Below, piece by piece: positions 3,773 to 7,402 of a stretch of DNA of 64,000 nucleotides. Below the pieces are notes generated by a model. It ran no database searches. It was not told the DNA's origin and saw only the letters and a list, made by a program, of their open reading frames with translations. The stretch's first letter is position 1; each line of letters starts with the position of its first letter. The stretch is from Acutalibacteraceae bacterium (GTDB lineage: Bacteria; Bacillota; Clostridia; Oscillospirales; Acutalibacteraceae), in assembly GCA_036309125.1 (NCBI GenBank), contig JAXJUJ010000112.1, positions 1,552-65,551 of the forward strand, given 5' to 3'. Position numbers and translations under genes: made by a program.

Positions 3773-3801
3773 ATTATAACAGAGGAGGCTTAAAAAGTCA
3801 A
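3773..3801 (-). promoter_or_regulatory. sigma-70-type promoter of the xerD-like gene
   Basis: On the minus strand, TTGACT (3801-3796), a 17-nt spacer, then TATAAT (3778-3773) preceded by TG (TGTTATAAT). The -35 lies 2 nt from the left palindromic site. Confidence 0.7.
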
Positions 3802-3803
3802 TT

Positions 3804-3837
3804 AATTATACAAAAGAACTAAGATTTTGTATAATTA
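3804..3837. repeat. left boundary palindromic site (att- or dif-like)
   Basis: AATTATACAAAA-GAACTAAGA-TTTTGTATAATT(A): 12-bp inverted arms with a 9-bp spacer. The same arms occur at 6535-6565. Confidence 0.6.
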
Positions 3838-4055
3838 TGAGTGCAAAGTGACGAAAGTTGTTGAGAAATATGTTTTTTCTTTCCAGCAGGCGGGAAACGC
3901 ACAGCCACAGGGCTGTAGCGAGTTTCGCGGACGTTTCGGGCCTCTGGGTTCCCGAACGTTCCGCGACGTGTCTGAAGCTGCAGCACTGTGGTGAGCGTCT
4001 CACGCTCTGCCGACACTCACTGACCGTACGTAGTGGACATAGCACAGACTTACCA

Positions 4056-4111
4056 CAGAAGGCAAACACTCACACCTTGAGGGCGCTCCCCCACGGGGGA
4101 CGGGAGGGGGC
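4056..4111 (+). repeat. 56-bp perfect direct repeat, copy A
   Basis: CAGAAGGCAAACACTCACACCTTGAGGGCGCTCCCCCACGGGGGACGGGAGGGGGC, identical to 4659-4714. Confidence 0.95.
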
Positions 4112-4146
4112 AAAACAAAAGGACCCCGACAAACGTCGGAGTCCTT
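4112..4146 (-). terminator. rho-independent terminator (minus strand) inside the GC-rich block
   Basis: The minus strand reads AAGGACUCCGAC-GUUU-GUCGGGGUCCUU followed by UUGUUUUG. The stem is 12 bp with one G-U pair. Confidence 0.8.
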
Positions 4147-4188
4147 CCGTGAAAAGTGAAGATAATCAATATCTCACACCTATCGGGC
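4112..4188 (-). ncRNA. candidate ~75-nt small RNA (promoter-to-terminator unit)
   Basis: Defined by the promoter at 4195-4223 and the terminator at 4112-4146. There is no ORF between them. Confidence 0.5.
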
Positions 4189-4194
4189 ACCTAA

Positions 4195-4223
4195 ATATTA
4201 GCACAGCCTTGTGGAAAAGTCAA
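4195..4223 (-). promoter_or_regulatory. strong sigma-70-type promoter (minus strand)
   Basis: On the minus strand, TTGACT (4223-4218), a 17-nt spacer, then TAATAT (4200-4195). An A-tract (CATCAAAAAAAGTG) immediately upstream resembles an UP element. Confidence 0.7.
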
Positions 4224-4261
4224 CACTTTTTTTGATGTCAATATATTGACCCTTCAGGGTC

Positions 4262-4352
4262 CTATGTAGCACACATCAAGGCGGACACAGCCGTCAAGGT
4301 GGAGACCGTAAGGTACTACCTTGACAGCTGTGTAATCCGCCGTGATACATAG
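4262..4352. other. long imperfect hairpin (~29 bp paired over 91 nt)
   Basis: CTATGTA..TCA.GGCGGA.ACAGC.GTCAAGGT, a 17-nt loop, then ACCTTGAC.GCTGT....TCCGCC.TGA TACATAG. Confidence 0.6.
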
Positions 4353-4658
4353 TAGTCGCTATGATAGAAAAACAGTATGCGACTGGGCGCGGGTGGGAGG
4401 CGACCGAACAAGGCGGAGCATCGCTGACCACTCACTCAATATGCTCCGCCGCAGTGAGGGTAGCGGGCGGGAATACAACTGTTCGAAGTGCCGACCACAC
4501 AACTTACCACACCACTACACTTCTCAGCTTCCCGGTAACCTGCCCCCGGCACGAGTAACCGAGAATGCGACCGGAGCAAAAGCGAAGCGGCTGTTTTTCG
4601 TGGCTGTCGGCTACCCCCGGGCGCATTCCCATAGTTGACAATTATTGCACATCTTCCT

Positions 4659-4714
4659 CAGAAGGCAAACACTCACACCTTGAGGGCGCTCCCCCACGGG
4701 GGACGGGAGGGGGC
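4659..4714 (+). repeat. 56-bp perfect direct repeat, copy B
   Basis: Identical to 4056-4111. About 20 nt of degenerate similarity extends upstream of both copies (GCACAgaCTTaCCaCAGAAGG versus GCACAtCTTCCtCAGAAGG). Confidence 0.95.
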
Positions 4715-4785
4715 TGTTCCTACCGTTTGCACTATTTTGTTATGTGGCTGTCGCTTGTATTAGACTGCCGAAGGCTGTCTGATAC

Positions 4786-4809
4786 ATTCTTGATAATATA
4801 GAAACAACG
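4786..4809 (+). promoter_or_regulatory. putative double-strand origin nick region (pC194/pUB110 type)
   Basis: ATTCTTGATAATATAGAAACAACG contains CTTGATA (4789-4795). As I recall, the pUB110 origin reads CTTGATACATATAGAAATAACG with the nick after CTTG. It lies about 45 bp upstream of rep. Confidence 0.6.
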
Positions 4810-4837
4810 TTTTTCAATAAAAAGCCTTCAATCCTTT

Positions 4838-5746
4838 ATGTATCAATGCTTTCAGCACTTTCTTATGTCTAACGATTGTCTTATAGAAGAACTTACTTAT
4901 TACAAGAATTTGACTGAAATTACTGCAGATTGTATTATAAATAATAGTGGTGCTATTATTTCAAGAGCTCAAAAAATCAAATTATGTGGTACTTTTATCG
5001 AGACTGCACACATCAGTGACGATAACGGCACGGTTCGCGAGGTGGTAACCTCTGCGAACTTCTGCCGTGAAAGACTCTGCCCGATGTGTCAAAGACGAAA
5101 GTCTTTGAAAACATCTTCAGATGTCCGAAAACTTGTTGAATATCTGAATGGCCGTGGCTGGATACATATGGTGCTGACCGTAAAGAATTGCTCTGCATCA
5201 GAGCTGGACGAAACAATAACGAAGTTGTTTCGTGACAGCTCATTTCTTATCACGAAAACGCCCGAATTCAAGAAGGCTTTTCGTGGTGCTTTGCGGTGTC
5301 TTGAAGTTACCTTCAATTCTGAGACTGATACTTATCATCCACATCTGCATGTGTTATTGAGCTCTGACAAGAGCTACAATAACAACAGCAGAAAACGCAT
5401 CAGCCGTGATCGGCTGCGTTGGTTGTGGTGGGAAGTATCAGGCATAGACTATATGCCACAAGTACACATTGATTCCAATGTTAACGAAGGTATCATCGCA
5501 GAAATAGCAAAGTACTGTGTCAAGCCTTTAGAGCTTGACTTGCCCTCTTCAAAGCGGTGCGAAGTGTTGGAGACACTTCACTCTGCTTTGCACGGTCGTC
5601 GTCTGATGCAGACTTATGGAGAAATCAAGACAGCTTTCAAAGCTCTGAAGATAGATATCAACTCTGATTCTGAAAGGGAATATGTAGCTGACACCGAACA
5701 AATGTTCGTATATGATTTTGAGCTTTCACAATATTGGAAAAGATAA
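4838..5746 (+). CDS. rep: rolling-circle replication initiator, Rep_1 (pC194/pUB110) family HUH endonuclease
   Basis: 302 aa. CRERLCPMCQRRK (compare pUB110 RepU CKSRLCPMCNWRR), MVLTVKN, HUH motif HPHLHVLL (5336-5359), active-site AEIAKYCVKP (Tyr at 5513-5515) and LHGRRLMQTYGE. There is no obvious Shine-Dalgarno. Confidence 0.9.
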   Translation: MYQCFQHFLMSNDCLIEELTYYKNLTEITADCIINNSGAIISRAQKIKLCGTFIETAHISDDNGTVREVVTSANFCRERLCPMCQRRKSLKTSSDVRKLVEYLNGRGWIHMVLTVKNCSASELDETITKLFRDSSFLITKTPEFKKAFRGALRCLEVTFNSETDTYHPHLHVLLSSDKSYNNNSRKRISRDRLRWLWWEVSGIDYMPQVHIDSNVNEGIIAEIAKYCVKPLELDLPSSKRCEVLETLHSALHGRRLMQTYGEIKTAFKALKIDINSDSEREYVADTEQMFVYDFELSQYWKR

Positions 5747-6288
5747 TTGATTTGACTTTTTATGGAAAGTCAAATCGAAAGGGGTGCTTGCTTATAAAAA
5801 GCGAATACCTTGACCCGAAGATGATCGAACATGTTTTATACGCTCTCACGCCTCAGAATAGGCTAATATGCCGAGTTTGCTTGAAAACTGGGTTGAGACT
5901 TTCTGACGTGCTTTCACTTAAAACAGACAGCCTCAGCAAGCGTATGACAATACGCGAGCTGAAAACAGGAAAGAAAAAGACTTTCACCATTGGTGACCGT
6001 CTTTTTCGTGAGATGTCGGTTCAGGCTGGACAGGTGTATGTGTTCCCACACCGCTCTGATCCTGATCGGCACAAAACAAGGCAAGCTGTATACGCTGATC
6101 TGAAACGAGCTTCTAAGGCTTTTCGGGTCAAGTGCAACTTTTCTCCGCATAGCTTGCGGAAGGTTTACGCTGTGGAATTGTACAAAAAATACGGTGATCT
6201 GAAGCGAGTTCAGAATGCTCTGAATCACGATAATGATGTTGTAACAATCATTTATGCTTTAGCAGATGAACTTCAGCGTAGAAAATAA
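5734..6288 (+). CDS. small tyrosine recombinase (catalytic domain only)
   Basis: 184 aa. Arg-I in TGLRLSD (R55), Lys in ELKTGKKK, HSLRK (H139/R142), ALNHDN (H165) and TIIY (Y174). The TTG start overlaps the rep stop by 13 nt, and the exact start is uncertain (alternative TTG at 5788 after AAAGGGG). Confidence 0.85.
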   Translation: MEKIIDLTFYGKSNRKGCLLIKSEYLDPKMIEHVLYALTPQNRLICRVCLKTGLRLSDVLSLKTDSLSKRMTIRELKTGKKKTFTIGDRLFREMSVQAGQVYVFPHRSDPDRHKTRQAVYADLKRASKAFRVKCNFSPHSLRKVYAVELYKKYGDLKRVQNALNHDNDVVTIIYALADELQRRK

Positions 6289-6324
6289 AAAAGAGACTCA
6301 CTGTTGACAGTGGGTCTCTTTTTG
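6287..6324. terminator. bidirectional rho-independent terminator after the recombinase gene
   Basis: AAAAA-AGAGACTCAC-tgttgaca-GTGGGTCTCT-TTTTG: a 10-bp stem with an A-run on one side and a T-run on the other. Confidence 0.85.
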
Positions 6325-6387
6325 TGTTAAGTTATAACCGACAGATGCGGGGAAGCTTCTATCACGGGCGTTGGGTTATAACCTTAC
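6287..6387 (-). ncRNA. candidate ~100-nt small RNA (second promoter-to-terminator unit)
   Basis: The promoter at 6394-6422 fires toward the terminator at 6287-6324. The transcript would contain the GGTTATAAC / GTTATAACC pairing (6374-6382 / 6331-6339). No ORF with an RBS. Confidence 0.4.
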
Positions 6388-6393
6388 TTTGTG

Positions 6394-6422
6394 ATAATAT
6401 CATAGCTTTCAACTGTTGTCAA
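6394..6422 (-). promoter_or_regulatory. sigma-70-type promoter (minus strand)
   Basis: On the minus strand, TTGACA (6422-6417), a 17-nt spacer, then TATTAT (6399-6394). Confidence 0.6.
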
Positions 6423-6478
6423 TAGAAACTTTCAGAGAGGAGTGAACTGACTGAAAGCAGATACTGAACGAAATAATT

Positions 6479-6500
6479 CTACAAAATCTATCTTTTGTAG
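6479..6500. repeat. third, shorter palindromic site related to the boundary sites
   Basis: CTACAAAA-TCTATC-TTTTGTAG: 8-bp arms with a 6-bp spacer. It shares the ACAAAA/TTTTGT core with the boundary sites. Confidence 0.5.
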
Positions 6501-6534
6501 CCGAGGTTTGGTCGGCTTTAATTGCTGTTTAAGC

Positions 6535-6565
6535 AATTATACAAAAGAAATATTTTGTATAATTA
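6535..6565. repeat. right boundary palindromic site (att- or dif-like)
   Basis: AATTATACAAAA-GAAATA-TTTTGTATAATT(A): 12-bp arms with a 6-bp spacer. Confidence 0.6.
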
Positions 6566-6634
6566 AGGGGAGTTTGTAATAAGAATATACCGTATTTTTT
6601 GCAAATACAGTTAATATTCCCATTATAATGACTA

Positions 6635-7402
6635 TTAACTTTGTAATAACGGAATTATACCACCGATATCAATCAATGGACCTTCAGACAATTCAATGTA
6701 ATTAATATTATATTTTAAAAGAAAATCTTTAATTAAATCTCCATCGATGTGTGTATCAAGTTTACCTGTAAAGACAATCAGGTTTTTATCAAGCATACCA
6801 CAAGTTCCGCCGATAAAACCGTATTCACGACCTTTTAATACAACCGAGCCTTTTCTGATTAAAAGACAATCAAATCCATTATTCACAGCAGTCTTATATA
6901 TTGATTCATCATCAGTTATTAAAGCATTTTCTTTAATTAATACAACTGAACAAGCGGCATATCCTTGATTTACGTGGATTAATTCATACTGATGTAATTT
7001 AGCGTAATTCTCCAATGAATTATCAATATATTTAGTGTTACATAAAATTTTATTTCCGGCAACGGTTACATTTAACTTTACATCACCCGGATATGGTGAA
7101 GAAATTTTGTGTTCTGAAACAATTAATTTAATTTCATTATTCAGATTATTAATTGTTAAATAATTAACAATTATAAATTTTAAACTTTCGTCTATAATAA
7201 CACAGTTTTCGCTTACCTGTATAAATCTGCAGTCTGCATGTGTGGCAATATCCGTAAACATCTTGTCATTATATGGAATCTCAACGACCTCAATGCCCCA
7301 AATATCTCTAATTTTTTGTGAAATCAGTGGATACTCCGAAGAAATTAATACAGACAGCACTTTTTTGTCAGGTAACAACGGTTTAACAGGAAGTTTTTTC
7401 AA
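6635..7402 (-). CDS. conserved hypothetical protein (possibly a DUF6873-type guanidino-group-modifying-enzyme fold)
   Basis: 255-aa ORF with host-like composition, located downstream of radA. The GFIGGTCGML motif is near the C-terminus. The family assignment is from memory only. Confidence 0.6.
   Translation of the reverse strand: MKKLPVKPLLPDKKVLSVLISSEYPLISQKIRDIWGIEVVEIPYNDKMFTDIATHADCRFIQVSENCVIIDESLKFIIVNYLTINNLNNEIKLIVSEHKISSPYPGDVKLNVTVAGNKILCNTKYIDNSLENYAKLHQYELIHVNQGYAACSVVLIKENALITDDESIYKTAVNNGFDCLLIRKGSVVLKGREYGFIGGTCGMLDKNLIVFTGKLDTHIDGDLIKDFLLKYNINYIELSEGPLIDIGGIIPLLQS

Follow-up and report, generated by a model that had tools for sequence, protein, structure and literature searches.

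What is the segment of about 2.7 kb that lies immediately upstream of a xer gene in an Acutalibacteraceae-type gut Clostridia bacterium, how did it enter the chromosome, and why at this place? In the 64,000-nt stretch of DNA analyzed here (the window), this segment carries a replication initiator gene, a small tyrosine recombinase gene and a long GC-rich block (Table 1). We conclude that positions 3819-6549 are probably an intact, recently mobile rolling-circle plasmid of the pC194 (Rep_1) family, integrated at the probable dif site of its host.

Insertion polymorphism and replicon identity

Two sites bound the segment where the earlier note had placed them, and the 15-nt and 13-nt blocks that they share are exact. 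The direct repeats are spaced 2731 bp apart, and the inserted element (3819..6549, + strand) is 2731 bp long; its boundary may lie at any position of the 15-nt identity (3804-3818 = 6535-6549). The former estimate of ~2.76 kb (3804-6565, 2762 bp) was too large because it took in the right-hand site, which is the host site in regenerated form. From 6535 onward, the sequence of that site is that of the empty site in three contigs (L001, L002, L004). As had been anticipated, comparison of the joined flanks with other assemblies revealed empty alleles with a single palindrome. Three independent assemblies lacked the segment at the same site, and one of them, the metagenome contig L004, matched over 1069 bp with 0 mismatches; occupied and empty alleles encode an identical Xer protein. 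Copies of the element with 98-100% identity occupy this site in L003, L005, L006/L008 and L038.

The assignment of the initiator to the Rep_1 type was borne out by the Pfam profile (142.9 bits against a cut-off of 33.2). Its HPHLH (HUH) motif and residues E147, E213 and Y217 do not vary among 20 relatives, following the same logic as the catalytic residues Glu142/Glu210/Tyr214 of pC194 RepA (PMC5703833). The true start is likely ATG 4865 (MSN..., conserved in relatives) rather than 4838, and neither start has a Shine-Dalgarno sequence, as stated before. Just upstream of rep lies the origin core TCTTGATAATA, common to the pC194 origin sequence (PMC7072734). The origin motif is kept upstream of rep in many relatives, and L009, with a Rep of only 39% identity, has exactly the same 24-nt block. 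After excision, Rep would nick at CTTG|ATA (4792/4793), a position predicted by analogy, and drive rolling-circle replication.

Most of the 164 Rep homologues (E<=1e-20) reside on 2.5-3.2-kb contigs, and relatives of the same layout with a long-spacer attP are closed circles of 2.5-2.9 kb. L054 and L055 represent one 2706-bp circle with different assembly breakpoints and 0 mismatches. The rat-caecum circles pRGI00836 and pRGI00891 had been deposited previously; pRGI00836, from a physically enriched circular-DNA library, is a 2713-bp circle of the same gene order (PMC3913684). Rep of the nearest closed circles is only 65-67% identical, and no free circle or attP junction of the exact element was recovered. 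The element is a member of a large family of tiny circles, as yet uncharacterised, in which a dif mimic is combined with a pared-down recombinase and a long structured non-coding block. The earlier proposal of an integrated plasmid-like element is thus backed by empty sites, Rep_1 and Phage_integrase matches, a pC194-type origin and circular relatives, and that of a possible ~2.7-kb circle by relatives of the same gene order that are closed circles.

Table 1. Features of the inserted element and its target site (window coordinates)
Feature	Position	Strand	Description
Host xer, Xer-family tyrosine recombinase, 337 aa	2745..3758	-	Pfam Phage_integrase 1.5e-35 + Phage_int_SAM_1
xer promoter	3773..3801	-	TTGACT-17-TATAAT with TG; promoter scan, 11/12 positions match; abuts left arm of probable dif
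attL	3802..3837	.	TTAATTATACAAAA GAACTAAGA TTTTGTATAATTA
attL, host left arm	3802-3815		
attL, plasmid 9-nt spacer	3816-3824		GAACTAAGA
attL, plasmid right arm	3825-3837		
GC-rich structured non-coding block	3838..4786	+	between attP and double-strand origin; ~950 nt
H1, ~120-nt imperfect hairpin	3886..4008	+	attP-proximal end of block; minimum-free-energy folds
R1, first 59-nt direct repeat copy	4053..4111	+	CTCACACCTTGAGGGCGC; C5/G5 hairpin + G-run
sRNA1 unit	4112..4223	-	promoter 4223..4195 (TTGACT-17-TAATAT with TG), predicted ~75-nt transcript, intrinsic terminator 4148..4110
H5, conserved hairpin	4263..4351	+	invariant inner stem GTCAAGGT/ACCTTGAC, covarying outer stems
Conserved block core	4380..4655	+	GGG-T-GGG ... 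hairpin ... GGG-C-GGG tracts, covarying hairpins (e.g. 4408-4447); alignments
R2, second 59-nt direct repeat copy	4656..4714	+	repeat family D1
Double-strand origin	4757..4810	+	hairpin GTATTAGAC...GTCTGATAC 4757-4785, then TTCTTGATAATATAGAAACAACGT 4787-4810
rep, Rep_1 (pC194/pUB110-type) rolling-circle initiator	4838..5746	+	Pfam Rep_1 1.6e-41
Small tyrosine recombinase, catalytic domain only, 166 aa	5788..6288	+	Pfam Phage_integrase 1.4e-22; longest ORF from 5734
sRNA2 unit	6285..6422	-	promoter 6422..6394 (TTGACA-17-TATTAT with TG), predicted ~100-nt transcript
Bidirectional intrinsic terminator	6288..6323	.	inverted repeat I5, T-runs both sides
siteX, second inverted dif-like site	6477..6500	.	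TTCTACAAAA TCTATC TTTTGTAG; 6-nt spacer, 60 bp from attP
Hairpins a + b between siteX and attP	6500..6539	+	consensus fold of 8 elements; a 6500-6516; b 6519-6539, overlaps attP left arm
attR (regenerated host site, probable dif)	6533..6566	.	(GC)AATTATACAAAA GAAATA TTTTGTATAATTAA
attR, left arm	6535-6546		
attR, spacer	6547-6552		GAAATA
attR, right arm	6553-6566		

Junctions and the integrating enzyme

The spacers of the two sites are unequal, 9 nt on the left and 6 nt on the right. This difference, passed over by the earlier note, proves key to the mechanism. The plasmid attP has the arms of the host dif (12-13-bp palindromic) and shares with it the first three spacer bases (GAA). The spacer and right arm of attL and the adjoining TGAGTG are those of attP in free circles (L054: GAACTGAGA TTTTGTATAATTA TGAGTG). 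Since attL retains the attP spacer and attR has the attB spacer, regenerating an exact dif, the junctions indicate that strands were exchanged on the shared GAA side alone, in the manner of Xer-exploiting elements (IMEX). A second species, whose spacer is of the TAA type, shows the same one-sided pattern.

In the proposed mechanism, an arm-bound tyrosine recombinase would swap one strand pair at the left-arm/GAA boundary, the only place where plasmid and host spacers match. Exchange on the other side would be barred because the spacers differ in sequence and length, and the junction would therefore be completed by replication or repair. As a result, attL would keep the spacer of the plasmid and attR would become a new, exact dif, by which dimer resolution of the chromosome would be preserved. 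VGJ/CTX-type IMEX elements operate in this manner.

Two recombinases are candidates for the acting enzyme. The gene product in the element, previously described as a 184-aa recombinase overlapping the rep stop, is indeed a tyrosine recombinase, but the overlap is a longest-ORF artefact: the protein very probably starts at TTG 5788 (Shine-Dalgarno AAAGGGG, 5778-5784) or ATG 5821, and its 394 relatives are 155-180 aa long. The structures matched by its AlphaFold2 model (pLDDT 94.3) are IntI4, P2 Int, XerH, XerA and lambda Int, in each case through the catalytic domain alone. A conserved tyrosine recombinase of 166 aa that consists of the catalytic domain only is new. Classical IMEX elements lack a recombinase of their own. 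The present element differs from them in encoding an intact, strongly conserved one, which could be the real integrase.

It is accordingly possible, though we favor it less, that this is an ordinary integrative plasmid, whose 166-aa recombinase recognises the palindromes and integrates and excises the element, the host dif being merely the chosen target. None of the catalytic residues (R, K, HxxR, H and Y) varies among 50 relatives, the protein is conserved in hundreds of circles, and its gene is always next to rep and near both dif-like sites. Homologues even accompany unrelated G2P-type Rep genes in the dif inserts L106 and L119. However, the protein has no core-binding or arm-binding domain, so sequence-specific synapsis by it alone is doubtful. 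The attP arms are the host Xer site rather than a private sequence, and full two-strand exchange would require identical spacers, whereas these differ. Furthermore, in other species the same site is used by Rep_trans+Zot, Zot and RepB replicons that are flanked by a long-spacer site and in which no recombinase was detectable. Together with the junctions, these replicons point at least as strongly to host Xer as the integrator. We therefore regard host Xer as the likely acting enzyme, possibly helped by the recombinase of the element, even though a 9-bp central region exceeds the length that Xer sites normally tolerate in duplex form.

The non-coding block and the second dif-like site

The GC-rich non-coding block had been recognized before. 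Its GC content is 50-57% over 3900-4800, compared with about 27-36% in the flanks; searches of the block found no conserved reading frame and no Rfam family match. Fold z-scores are -8.9 (+ strand RNA), -6.6 (- strand RNA) and -8.9 (+ strand DNA). Homologous blocks occur in all family members, keeping their position and orientation just 5' of the origin. L039 has, by eye, an equivalent of the long hairpin H1 with a different sequence. The repeats R1 and R2 (family D1) are 98% identical, and their motif is kept in L039, L051, L054, L058, L040 and L009. In hairpin H5, 14 of 22 pairs are changed on both sides, a degree of covariation reached in 0 of 500 shuffles (score 0.39 versus <=0.12 in slid controls). 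Its 3' arm holds TTGACA (4321-4326), followed by a poorly conserved -10-like element. A 950-nt GC-rich non-coding block with covariation-supported hairpins is new.

The element also has two predicted small RNA units of antisense orientation. Promoter, body and terminator of sRNA1 are kept in L039, L050 and L051, and by eye in L054; the terminator has a weak ctRNA_p42d-like match (E 0.033), and the 5' end AGGUGUGAG is complementary to CUCACACCU in R1 and R2. The sRNA2 promoter matches at 11/12 positions, and equivalent units are kept in L054, L011, L012 and L142, and by eye in L039 and L009. Its transcript ends at the bidirectional terminator that also serves the rep-recombinase operon; this is the strong terminator reported previously, with 17-nt arms that are 94% complementary.

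Most likely, the block is a lagging-strand (single-strand) origin region of a new type. H5 would present TTGACA as a -35-like element in a folded-DNA promoter, and the block would also hold replication control through the two small RNAs. It is 3-5 times longer than known single-strand origins, and their RSB and CS-6 signature motifs were sought in it and are absent. Less probably, the block acts as RNA instead of as a DNA-level origin and represents a new class of large structured non-coding RNA, e.g., a long leader of rep under the control of sRNA1. A GC content well above that of replicon and host, the strong z-scores and the covarying hairpins would fit such an RNA. So would the location of sRNA1 in L039, L051 and L054, where it lies antisense between R2 and the origin, with its 5' end complementary to the R repeats; rep without a Shine-Dalgarno also hints at unusual expression control. 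Nevertheless, on both strands, promoter scans and alignments revealed neither a conserved sigma-70-type promoter nor a conserved terminator that could serve a long transcript. The stems of 10 elements show no excess of G.T over A.C on either strand (21 vs 26), a lack of asymmetry unusual for RNA. Besides the missing Rfam match, the central 603 nt of the block seem to be missing from one 98%-related copy.

A second inverted dif-like site in the element, siteX, is also new. Its distance from attP is 59-62 bp in nearly all members and 145 bp in pRGI00836. Across the family, the siteX spacer, when reverse-complemented, recurs as a subsequence within the attP spacer of the same element (mean 5.4/6, reached in 0 of 20000 permutations; direct orientation, 3.0). 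In the consensus fold of hairpins a and b, 6 pairs are changed on both sides. These features raise the prospect, which we judge rather unlikely, of CTX-type integration: the displaced + strand would fold, siteX pairing with attP into a dif-like duplex with 2-4 bulged bases, and this folded single strand, not duplex DNA, would recombine with dif. An inverted pair of sites is also found in CTX phage (attP1/attP2; PMC4246890). In the consensus fold, the right arm of siteX is paired with the left arm of attP (C-G becomes A-T in the TAA-type element). The GAA at which exchange took place forms the 5' end of the spacer on the strand that bears the nick, which the model demands, and single-stranded circles are a necessary product of the replicon. 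On the other hand, the same co-variation would be expected if siteX served as another duplex site that needs an identical spacer start, or from gene conversion between siteX and attP. Each palindrome can fold on itself, the siteX spacer is flipped in one sample, which would abolish pairing, and the junctions fit double- and single-stranded substrates alike.

The target site

Judging by position, conservation and skew, the palindrome at which the element is inserted, TTAATTATACAAAA-GAAATA-TTTTGTATAATTAA, is very probably the dif site of the chromosome. Host Xer has orthologues (55-89% identity) in 80 Acutalibacteraceae/Ruminococcaceae species. A 6-nt-spacer palindrome lies <=260 nt upstream of xer (median 88 nt) in 59 of 76 related species, and it is kept there whatever the neighboring gene. 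In 43 of 47 species, the site separates a side of positive GC skew from one of negative GC skew; to its right in the window, the skew is negative for 58 kb. Window genes converge on the site, those on the left being on the + strand and ~50 of 54 long ORFs on the right on the - strand. The palindrome also has Xer-like geometry (6-bp spacer, 11-13-bp arms), and in other species unrelated rolling-circle plasmids and filamentous (inovirus-like) prophages are inserted at it, as in Vibrio. In this host lineage, dif would thus probably sit immediately upstream of xer, and Xer is the probable cognate recombinase. The earlier note rightly saw that a "xerD-like" gene adjoins the element; this neighborhood is not incidental, as the element is inserted in the conserved site of this very recombinase, where GC skew switches.

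Against these observations, it is very unlikely that the palindrome is the private target of an xer-like recombinase of another system that happens to attract mobile elements. Such a reading would draw on the dif role resting on position, conservation and skew rather than experiment, on scores of host Xer below the XerC, XerD, XerS and XerA equivalog cut-offs (196-215 bits with the NCBIfam XerC/XerA/XerD models, every score under its cut-off), and on 10 of 76 species in which a strict-pattern search detected no site. Least probable is an IS91-like rolling-circle transposon: Rep has weak N-terminal similarity to the IS91 zinc-binding domain and transposase (Pfam Zn_Tnp_IS91 4.4e-5, below cut-off; NCBIfam IS91 32 bits against 125), but Rep_1 scores 143 bits, the element ends in dif-like recombination sites rather than origin/terminus ends, insertion is site-specific with the target regenerated, and unit-length circles with attP exist. 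The identity of the palindrome as a probable dif had escaped the earlier note.

A recent insertion beside a host xer gene

The segment is an insertion, and a recent one. The earlier note had read it as an integrated rolling-circle plasmid-like element bounded by two sites; the positions it gave for these sites are exact, its core interpretation is supported, and the finding is real. The left and right sites have identical arms, and their spacers, 9 nt and 6 nt, have only the first three bases in common. Between the sites GC content rises to 50-57%, compared with about 27-36% in the flanks. The element ORFs encode an initiator of the Rep_1 type (E 1.6e-41) and a protein of the Phage_integrase family (E 1.4e-22), so that both profiles proposed in the note as a check gave significant matches. 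The left neighbor is the gene of a 337-aa Xer-family recombinase on the minus strand, whose promoter abuts the left site; to the right lie a DUF6873 gene and then radA.

A look-up of the exact Xer protein led to eight contigs from independent metagenomes. In the loci L001, L002 and L004 some 145 bp separate the DUF6873 gene from xer, and only one palindrome is present, TTAATTATACAAAA GAAATA TTTTGTATAATTAA; these loci are the empty-site alleles that the earlier note had suggested looking for. When the window flanks were joined, they matched L004 with 0 mismatches over 1069 bp, and the insert is 2731 bp long. In L003, L005, L006/L008 and L038 the element is present at the same place with 98-100% identity. 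Samples containing the element include SRR24599560, ERZ27236851 and SRR25030063. Of the two bounding sites, the right one is the target in regenerated form and the left one is a hybrid.

Two of the integrated copies differ in structure. A 98%-identical copy (L038:1021-1440, compared with window positions 3825-4870) has only 361 nt from attL to the origin and is without the 603-nt unit between the 59-nt repeats (sRNA1, H5 and core). The shortening may be a genuine deletion mediated by the repeats or else an artifact of assembly collapse at k=31; the Logan contigs L006 and L008, unlike L038, break at the 59-nt repeat. An 81%-related integrated copy (L039:1-110) has an attL spacer of 8 nt (GAAACATG), a degenerate right arm, and an additional lone half-site (TTTTGTATAATTG) 60 nt further in. 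Its left flank is unlike the host flank of the window, which may reflect tandem elements or another host.

Features of the element, attachment sites, and other inserts at the same target (window positions unless a locus of another assembly, L-number, is named)
Feature	Position	Sequence or content	Remark
Left site (attL)	3802-3837	TTAATTATACAAAA GAACTAAGA TTTTGTATAATTA	Host arm - GAACTAAGA - plasmid arm
Right site (attR)	6533-6566	AATTATACAAAA GAAATA TTTTGTATAATTAA	Plasmid arm - GAAATA - host arm; identical to empty site
attB (empty host site)		Left arm - GAAATA - right arm	
attP (free circle)		Left arm - GAACTAAGA - right arm	
siteX (second, inverted dif-like site)	6477-6500	TTCTACAAAA TCTATC TTTTGTAG	Sixty bp before attP
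GC-rich block	3838-4786	In order: H1, ~120-nt hairpin; two 59-nt direct repeats; sRNA1 unit; H5; core	~950 nt; directly 5' of predicted nick site
Predicted double-strand origin	4787-4810	TTCTTGATAATATAGAAACAACGT	27-54 nt upstream of rep start; hairpin before it
Small recombinase gene	5788..6288 (+)	166-aa tyrosine recombinase	
Other replicon, same site	L104:1512-5830	Inovirus-like, Rep_trans and Zot	
Other replicon, same site	L062:214-6000	Zot-bearing insert	
Other replicon, same site	L086:1337-6000	RepB-type rolling-circle plasmid with DUF2726 gene	
Other replicon, same site	L106:1-3000	G2P-type Rep and small-recombinase homologue	
Other replicon, same site	L119:1839-5910	G2P-type Rep and small-recombinase homologue	Tandem 4047-bp unit
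Other insert, same site	L095:4968-5920		~930 bp

A probable dif site and one-sided exchange

To judge by its sequence and surroundings, the target palindrome is very probably the dif site of the chromosome. In a scan for Xer, with one genome per species, we obtained 80 loci of 55-89% identity (L059-L138) from Acutalibacteraceae, Ruminococcaceae and unclassified Clostridia MAGs. In 59 of the 76 loci that had enough DNA upstream of xer, the sequence ATACAAAA-N6-TTTTGTAT was found no more than 260 nt upstream of this gene (median 88 nt), irrespective of the neighbor gene. Of the 47 loci with 2.5 kb or more on both sides, 43 had GC skew of opposite sign on the two sides, positive on one (mean +0.081) and negative on the other (mean -0.058). 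The window genes left of the site are on the plus strand, and on its right about 50 of 54 long ORFs are on the minus strand, i.e., gene orientation converges on the site, and the skew to its right is -0.07 to -0.25 over 58 kb. No second xer is present within the 64-kb window, and the score of the host recombinase reaches none of the named Xer equivalog cut-offs. The perfectly palindromic site lies mostly 50-150 bp upstream of xer, with its CCCT/AGGG flank in either orientation relative to the gene. The DUF6873 gene (6635-7402, minus strand) is the neighbor across the probable dif in many related species.

The linkage of a recombinase gene to its own adjoining site has a precedent in XerS/difSL (PMC1914069). 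In Legionella, the XerL/dif site was revealed by the mimic carried by a mobile element, LME-1 (PMC9765430), and here, too, the site is exploited by a mobile element with a mimic. As in the single-recombinase systems XerS/difSL, XerH/difH (PMC3325230) and XerL/dif, the site is at the skew switch. Unlike in these systems, the lineage is Oscillospirales/Acutalibacteraceae and the palindrome formed by the arms is perfect over 13-14 nt. The searched literature contained no description of an xer-linked dif module for Acutalibacteraceae/Ruminococcaceae; xer and the palindromic site at the skew switch apparently form such an undescribed module. A probable dimer-resolution site and a linked recombinase can thereby be named for these abundant, mostly uncultured gut and rumen Clostridia.

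The arms of attP and its first 3 spacer bases are the same as those of the host site. It follows from the att site sequences that the crossover occurred in AATTATACAAAAGAA; read along the rep-sense strand, this is the 5' side of the spacer, and the opposite side of the spacer was not exchanged. In a second species, a relative with a 62% identical Rep lies between xer and DUF6873 in 24 contigs; both of its spacers begin with TAA, and the same one-sided pattern is seen. In integrative mobile elements exploiting Xer (IMEX) of the VGJ/CTX type, one strand pair is exchanged where the central regions match, and replication completes the process (PMC4246890). The element junctions have the anatomy of this type of integration.

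Like VGJ-phi-type IMEX of Vibrio cholerae (PMC4246890), the element has a single duplex dif-like attP with dif homology on one side of the central region only, shows one-sided exchange with a hybrid site and a regenerated dif as flanks, and uses rolling-circle replication. Unlike VGJ-phi, which is a filamentous phage, it is a plasmid, it carries its own mini-recombinase and a second inverted site, and its attP spacer exceeds the dif spacer by 3 nt. Moreover, whereas VGJ-phi relies on XerC plus XerD, the host here seems to act on a palindromic site with a single recombinase. With regard to the definition of IMEX, the element is integrated at the probable dif, its attP mimics dif, and dif is regenerated. 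However, IMEX have no recombinase of their own, and the element encodes an intact, catalytic-domain-only tyrosine recombinase; therefore, it is not a canonical IMEX.

Several other replicons occupy the same site in other species, and in inserts with a visible second site the spacer is 7-9 nt. No recombinase was detected in the L104, L062 and L086 inserts. Such recombinase-less replicons indirectly favor the host Xer, which we infer to be the probable enzyme of integration or at least a required partner. Relatives of the small recombinase (394 at E<=1e-10) are 155-180 aa long and occur mostly in 2-3-kb contigs. The R, K, HxxR, H and Y residues of this protein are invariant, and its AlphaFold2 model (pLDDT 94.3), which consists of a catalytic domain only, with no core-binding domain, can be superimposed on the corresponding domains of IntI4, P2 Int, XerH, XerA and lambda Int. 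The protein may serve in integration, excision or multimer resolution, or may assist Xer.

The mechanism of Xer-site hijacking has been worked out mainly in filamentous phages of Vibrio. Tiny rolling-circle plasmids and inovirus-like prophages of Gram-positive gut anaerobes probably also hijack Xer sites, which would explain how the 'cryptic' 2-3-kb circles of the metamobilome persist and find hosts. Because the start of the attP spacer matches the host dif, hosts can be assigned for a family of hundreds. The system is small enough for a synthetic rebuild and could yield vectors for site-specific integration in those gut Clostridia that resist genetic manipulation.

A rolling-circle plasmid with a structured GC-rich block

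We regard the element as a rolling-circle plasmid of the pC194 family, from gut Clostridia, with IMEX-like behavior at the probable xer-linked dif site. Its Rep_1 (PF01446) score is 142.9 bits (cut-off 33.2). The HPHLH (HUH) motif, E147, E213 and Y217 (counted from ATG 4865; E and Y four residues apart) are invariant among 20 relatives, and the three residues match the catalytic set Glu142/Glu210/Tyr214 of pC194 RepA (PMC5703833). The origin block is identical over 24 nt in L009, though the Rep of this locus is only 39% identical. A predicted nick motif, CTTGATA, with the nick expected at 4792/4793 in the window, is found upstream of rep across the whole family, and the element and pC194 origins have TCTTGATAATA in common (PMC7072734). 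The absence of a Shine-Dalgarno sequence before rep, reported in the earlier note, holds at both candidate starts (4838-4870). In the relatives inspected (L039 and L040), rep likewise lacks one, and a conserved TATCAAYGCTTTC precedes the start.

The element is similar to the pC194/pUB110 family in its Rep_1 protein with HUH and Glu/Glu/Tyr, the TCTTGATAATA origin core just upstream of rep, small size (2.7 kb), a structured region upstream of the predicted nick site, and small counter-oriented RNAs. It differs from this family in that it integrates site-specifically in the chromosome, carries a tyrosine recombinase and two dif-like sites, and has a structured block that is ~950 nt long, GC-rich, and without the RSB and CS-6 of ssoA/U/T/W. 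An IS91-like transposon can be dismissed, with an NCBIfam score of 32 bits against a cut-off of 125 and with ends that are recombination sites, not origin and terminus.

Rep homologues with E<=1e-20 number 164; they are located on contigs mostly of 2.5-3.2 kb, many of which have k-mer terminal overlaps. L054 and L055 are one 2706-bp circle, with differing assembly breakpoints and no mismatch. The attP of circular relatives has the same arms and an 8-10-nt spacer; that of L054, AATTATACAAAA GAACTGAGA TTTTGTATAATTA TGAGTG, is almost base-for-base the attL of the window. Closed circles were seen for relatives, and a near-complete one has 88% Rep identity (L143). The attP junction of this exact element, predicted to read ...GCTGTTTAAGCAATTATACAAAAGAACTAAGATTTTGTATAATTATGAGTGC..., was not found, and exact-protein look-ups with Rep and the recombinase returned integrated or broken contigs only, with no free form of this element. 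A whole-element blastn search against PLSDB plasmids and INPHARED phages gave no match. An IMG/VR scan with Rep peptide patterns from a single sequence found none, and one with a Rep alignment query found two distant, uninformative matches. Among named plasmids, the best Rep identity is about 32%.

The closest deposited records are pRGI00836 (HG796380.1) and pRGI00891 (HG796394.1), which come from a rat caecum library of physically enriched circular DNA and were deposited without functional annotation and with no integration reported (PMC3913684). The former has siteX, a long-spacer attP, the GC-rich block, CTTGATAATATAGAAACA, rep and the small recombinase; the latter has rep, the small recombinase and the origin motif in common with the element, and no dif-like site was detected in it. 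Identity of the element to these records is only 40% (Rep) and 45-54% (recombinase).

In their plasmid and IMEX-like traits, these elements are known kinds varied, not a wholly new kind. Three oddities stand out, i.e., the stand-alone catalytic-domain recombinase, the co-evolving inverted dif-like sites, and the very large covarying GC-rich block.

The block matches no known origin or RNA family. Its position and orientation directly 5' of the predicted nick site are conserved in every member and, relative to the origin, fit a single-strand origin. Known classes of such origins were ruled out: RSB (TTATGCCGAGAAAATTT) and CS-6 (TAGCGT) in a folded region are conserved in ssoA/U/T/W (PMC4598088, PMC5703833), RSB within 3 mismatches is absent from the non-coding block of all 7 elements of 7, and CS-6 is not consistently present. 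In the H5 hairpin, the inner stem (GTCAAGGT/ACCTTGAC) does not vary and the outer stems covary, with both-sided change in 14 of 22 pairs; the observed covariation was reached by 0 of 500 shuffles. TTGACA is located on the 3' arm of this plus-strand hairpin, a geometry that would be expected of a folded-DNA promoter priming lagging-strand synthesis, by analogy with ssoA and filamentous-phage origins. The core has conserved G-tracts on either side of a covarying hairpin. The reading that we favor, about as likely as not, is that the block is a new type of single-strand origin with copy control.

The main rival explanation, a novel large RNA, is less likely in our estimate. The block folds far better than shuffles on both strands (z from -6.6 to -8.9), with fold energies alike on the two strands. 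Neither strand shows an excess of G.T over A.C mismatches in stems (21 vs 26), and this absent wobble asymmetry fits DNA-level hairpins somewhat better than RNA. An Rfam search at a permissive E<=0.5, covering the window and 11 relatives, gave no family, only terminator-like and unrelated weak matches below gathering thresholds. For the whole core, RNAalifold was applied to a 4-sequence MAFFT alignment that proved too poor, and only individual hairpins were evaluated. A protein-coding block was rejected, as a six-frame fragment comparison of 10 elements gave only short weak matches in all frames and on both strands. An nhmmer search with the block profile found no block in unrelated replicons at dif; therefore, there is no evidence for the block as an exchangeable host-specific cassette.

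At 4391-4480 and its equivalents in L039, L051, L054 and L144, five diverged elements have the arrangement GGG-T/C-GGG, covarying hairpin, GGG(G)-C-GGG(G), possibly a quadruplex with a duplex loop. The two 59-nt repeats, R1 and R2, likewise end in G-runs (GGGGGACGGGAGGGGG). The conserved minus-strand sRNA1 unit has a canonical promoter and terminator, and its transcript would run from about 4188 to 4112. Its module (4112-4226) follows R1 in the window, and follows R2, beside the origin, in L039 (905-1040), L051 and L054. Within each element, the R repeats change together with the sRNA 5' region (CACACC vs CCCTTC types), which is compatible with antisense pairing or iteron-like concerted evolution. 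A second minus-strand unit, sRNA2 (6285-6422), starts at a promoter close to consensus (TTGACA-17-TATTAT with TG), and its transcript, from about 6387 to 6285, would read into the bidirectional terminator where the recombinase gene ends. Distant relatives keep this unit, and no ORF is evident in it.

A second inverted site near attP

The distance between siteX and attP is 59-62 bp in nearly all members (145 bp in pRGI00836), and two covarying hairpins lie between them. When the siteX spacer is reverse-complemented, it forms, in most members, a subsequence of the attP spacer of the same element, e.g., GATAGA in GAACTAAGA, GACGGA in GAAGCGAGA and TAAAAA in TAAGCAAAA. The match averages 5.4 of 6, a value reached by none of 20000 permutations and by none of 2000 letter shuffles, compared with 3.0 in direct orientation.

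In CTX phage, attP1 and attP2 form a functional site by folding in the single-stranded genome (PMC4246890), and by analogy a folded single-stranded attachment site is possible for the element. Two circumstances allow such a reading here: the plasmid would make single strands, and the strand with the predicted nick also carries the exchanged side. As in CTX-phi, there are two inverted dif-like sites nearby, one with an over-long central region and neither ideal as a duplex; the spacers are mutually complementary save bulged bases, and a single-stranded replication intermediate would be available (PMC4246890). Unlike CTX-phi, the element has a spacing of 60 bp rather than 90 bp and fully palindromic arms, so that each site can self-fold. 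The spacer co-variation would also follow from a shared need of siteX and attP to match dif.

A joint reading of these features, which we consider unlikely, is that the elements are a new class of Xer hijacker with single-strand insertion at dif by means of a mini-recombinase and with the block as a new single-strand origin. The displaced single strand would fold so that its inverted pair of dif-like sites forms a bulged mimic of dif. The small recombinase would be an added catalytic subunit beside the DNA-bound host Xer, or would read bulged bases like integron integrases, and together with the host Xer it would insert the single strand at dif. The GC-rich block, as a new single-strand origin with a folded-DNA promoter hairpin and a quadruplex-with-hairpin motif, would set the duration of the single-stranded state and thereby couple replication to integration.

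Two circles from one sample, L053 and L052, have 13 differences in 2693 nt. In these circles, the 6-nt siteX spacer is exactly reverse-complemented (GACGGA at L053:2339-2360 vs TCCGTC at L052:2492-2513) with the arms unchanged. This flip/flop suggests a palindrome-loop switch, by either hairpin-templated switching or recombinase action at siteX.
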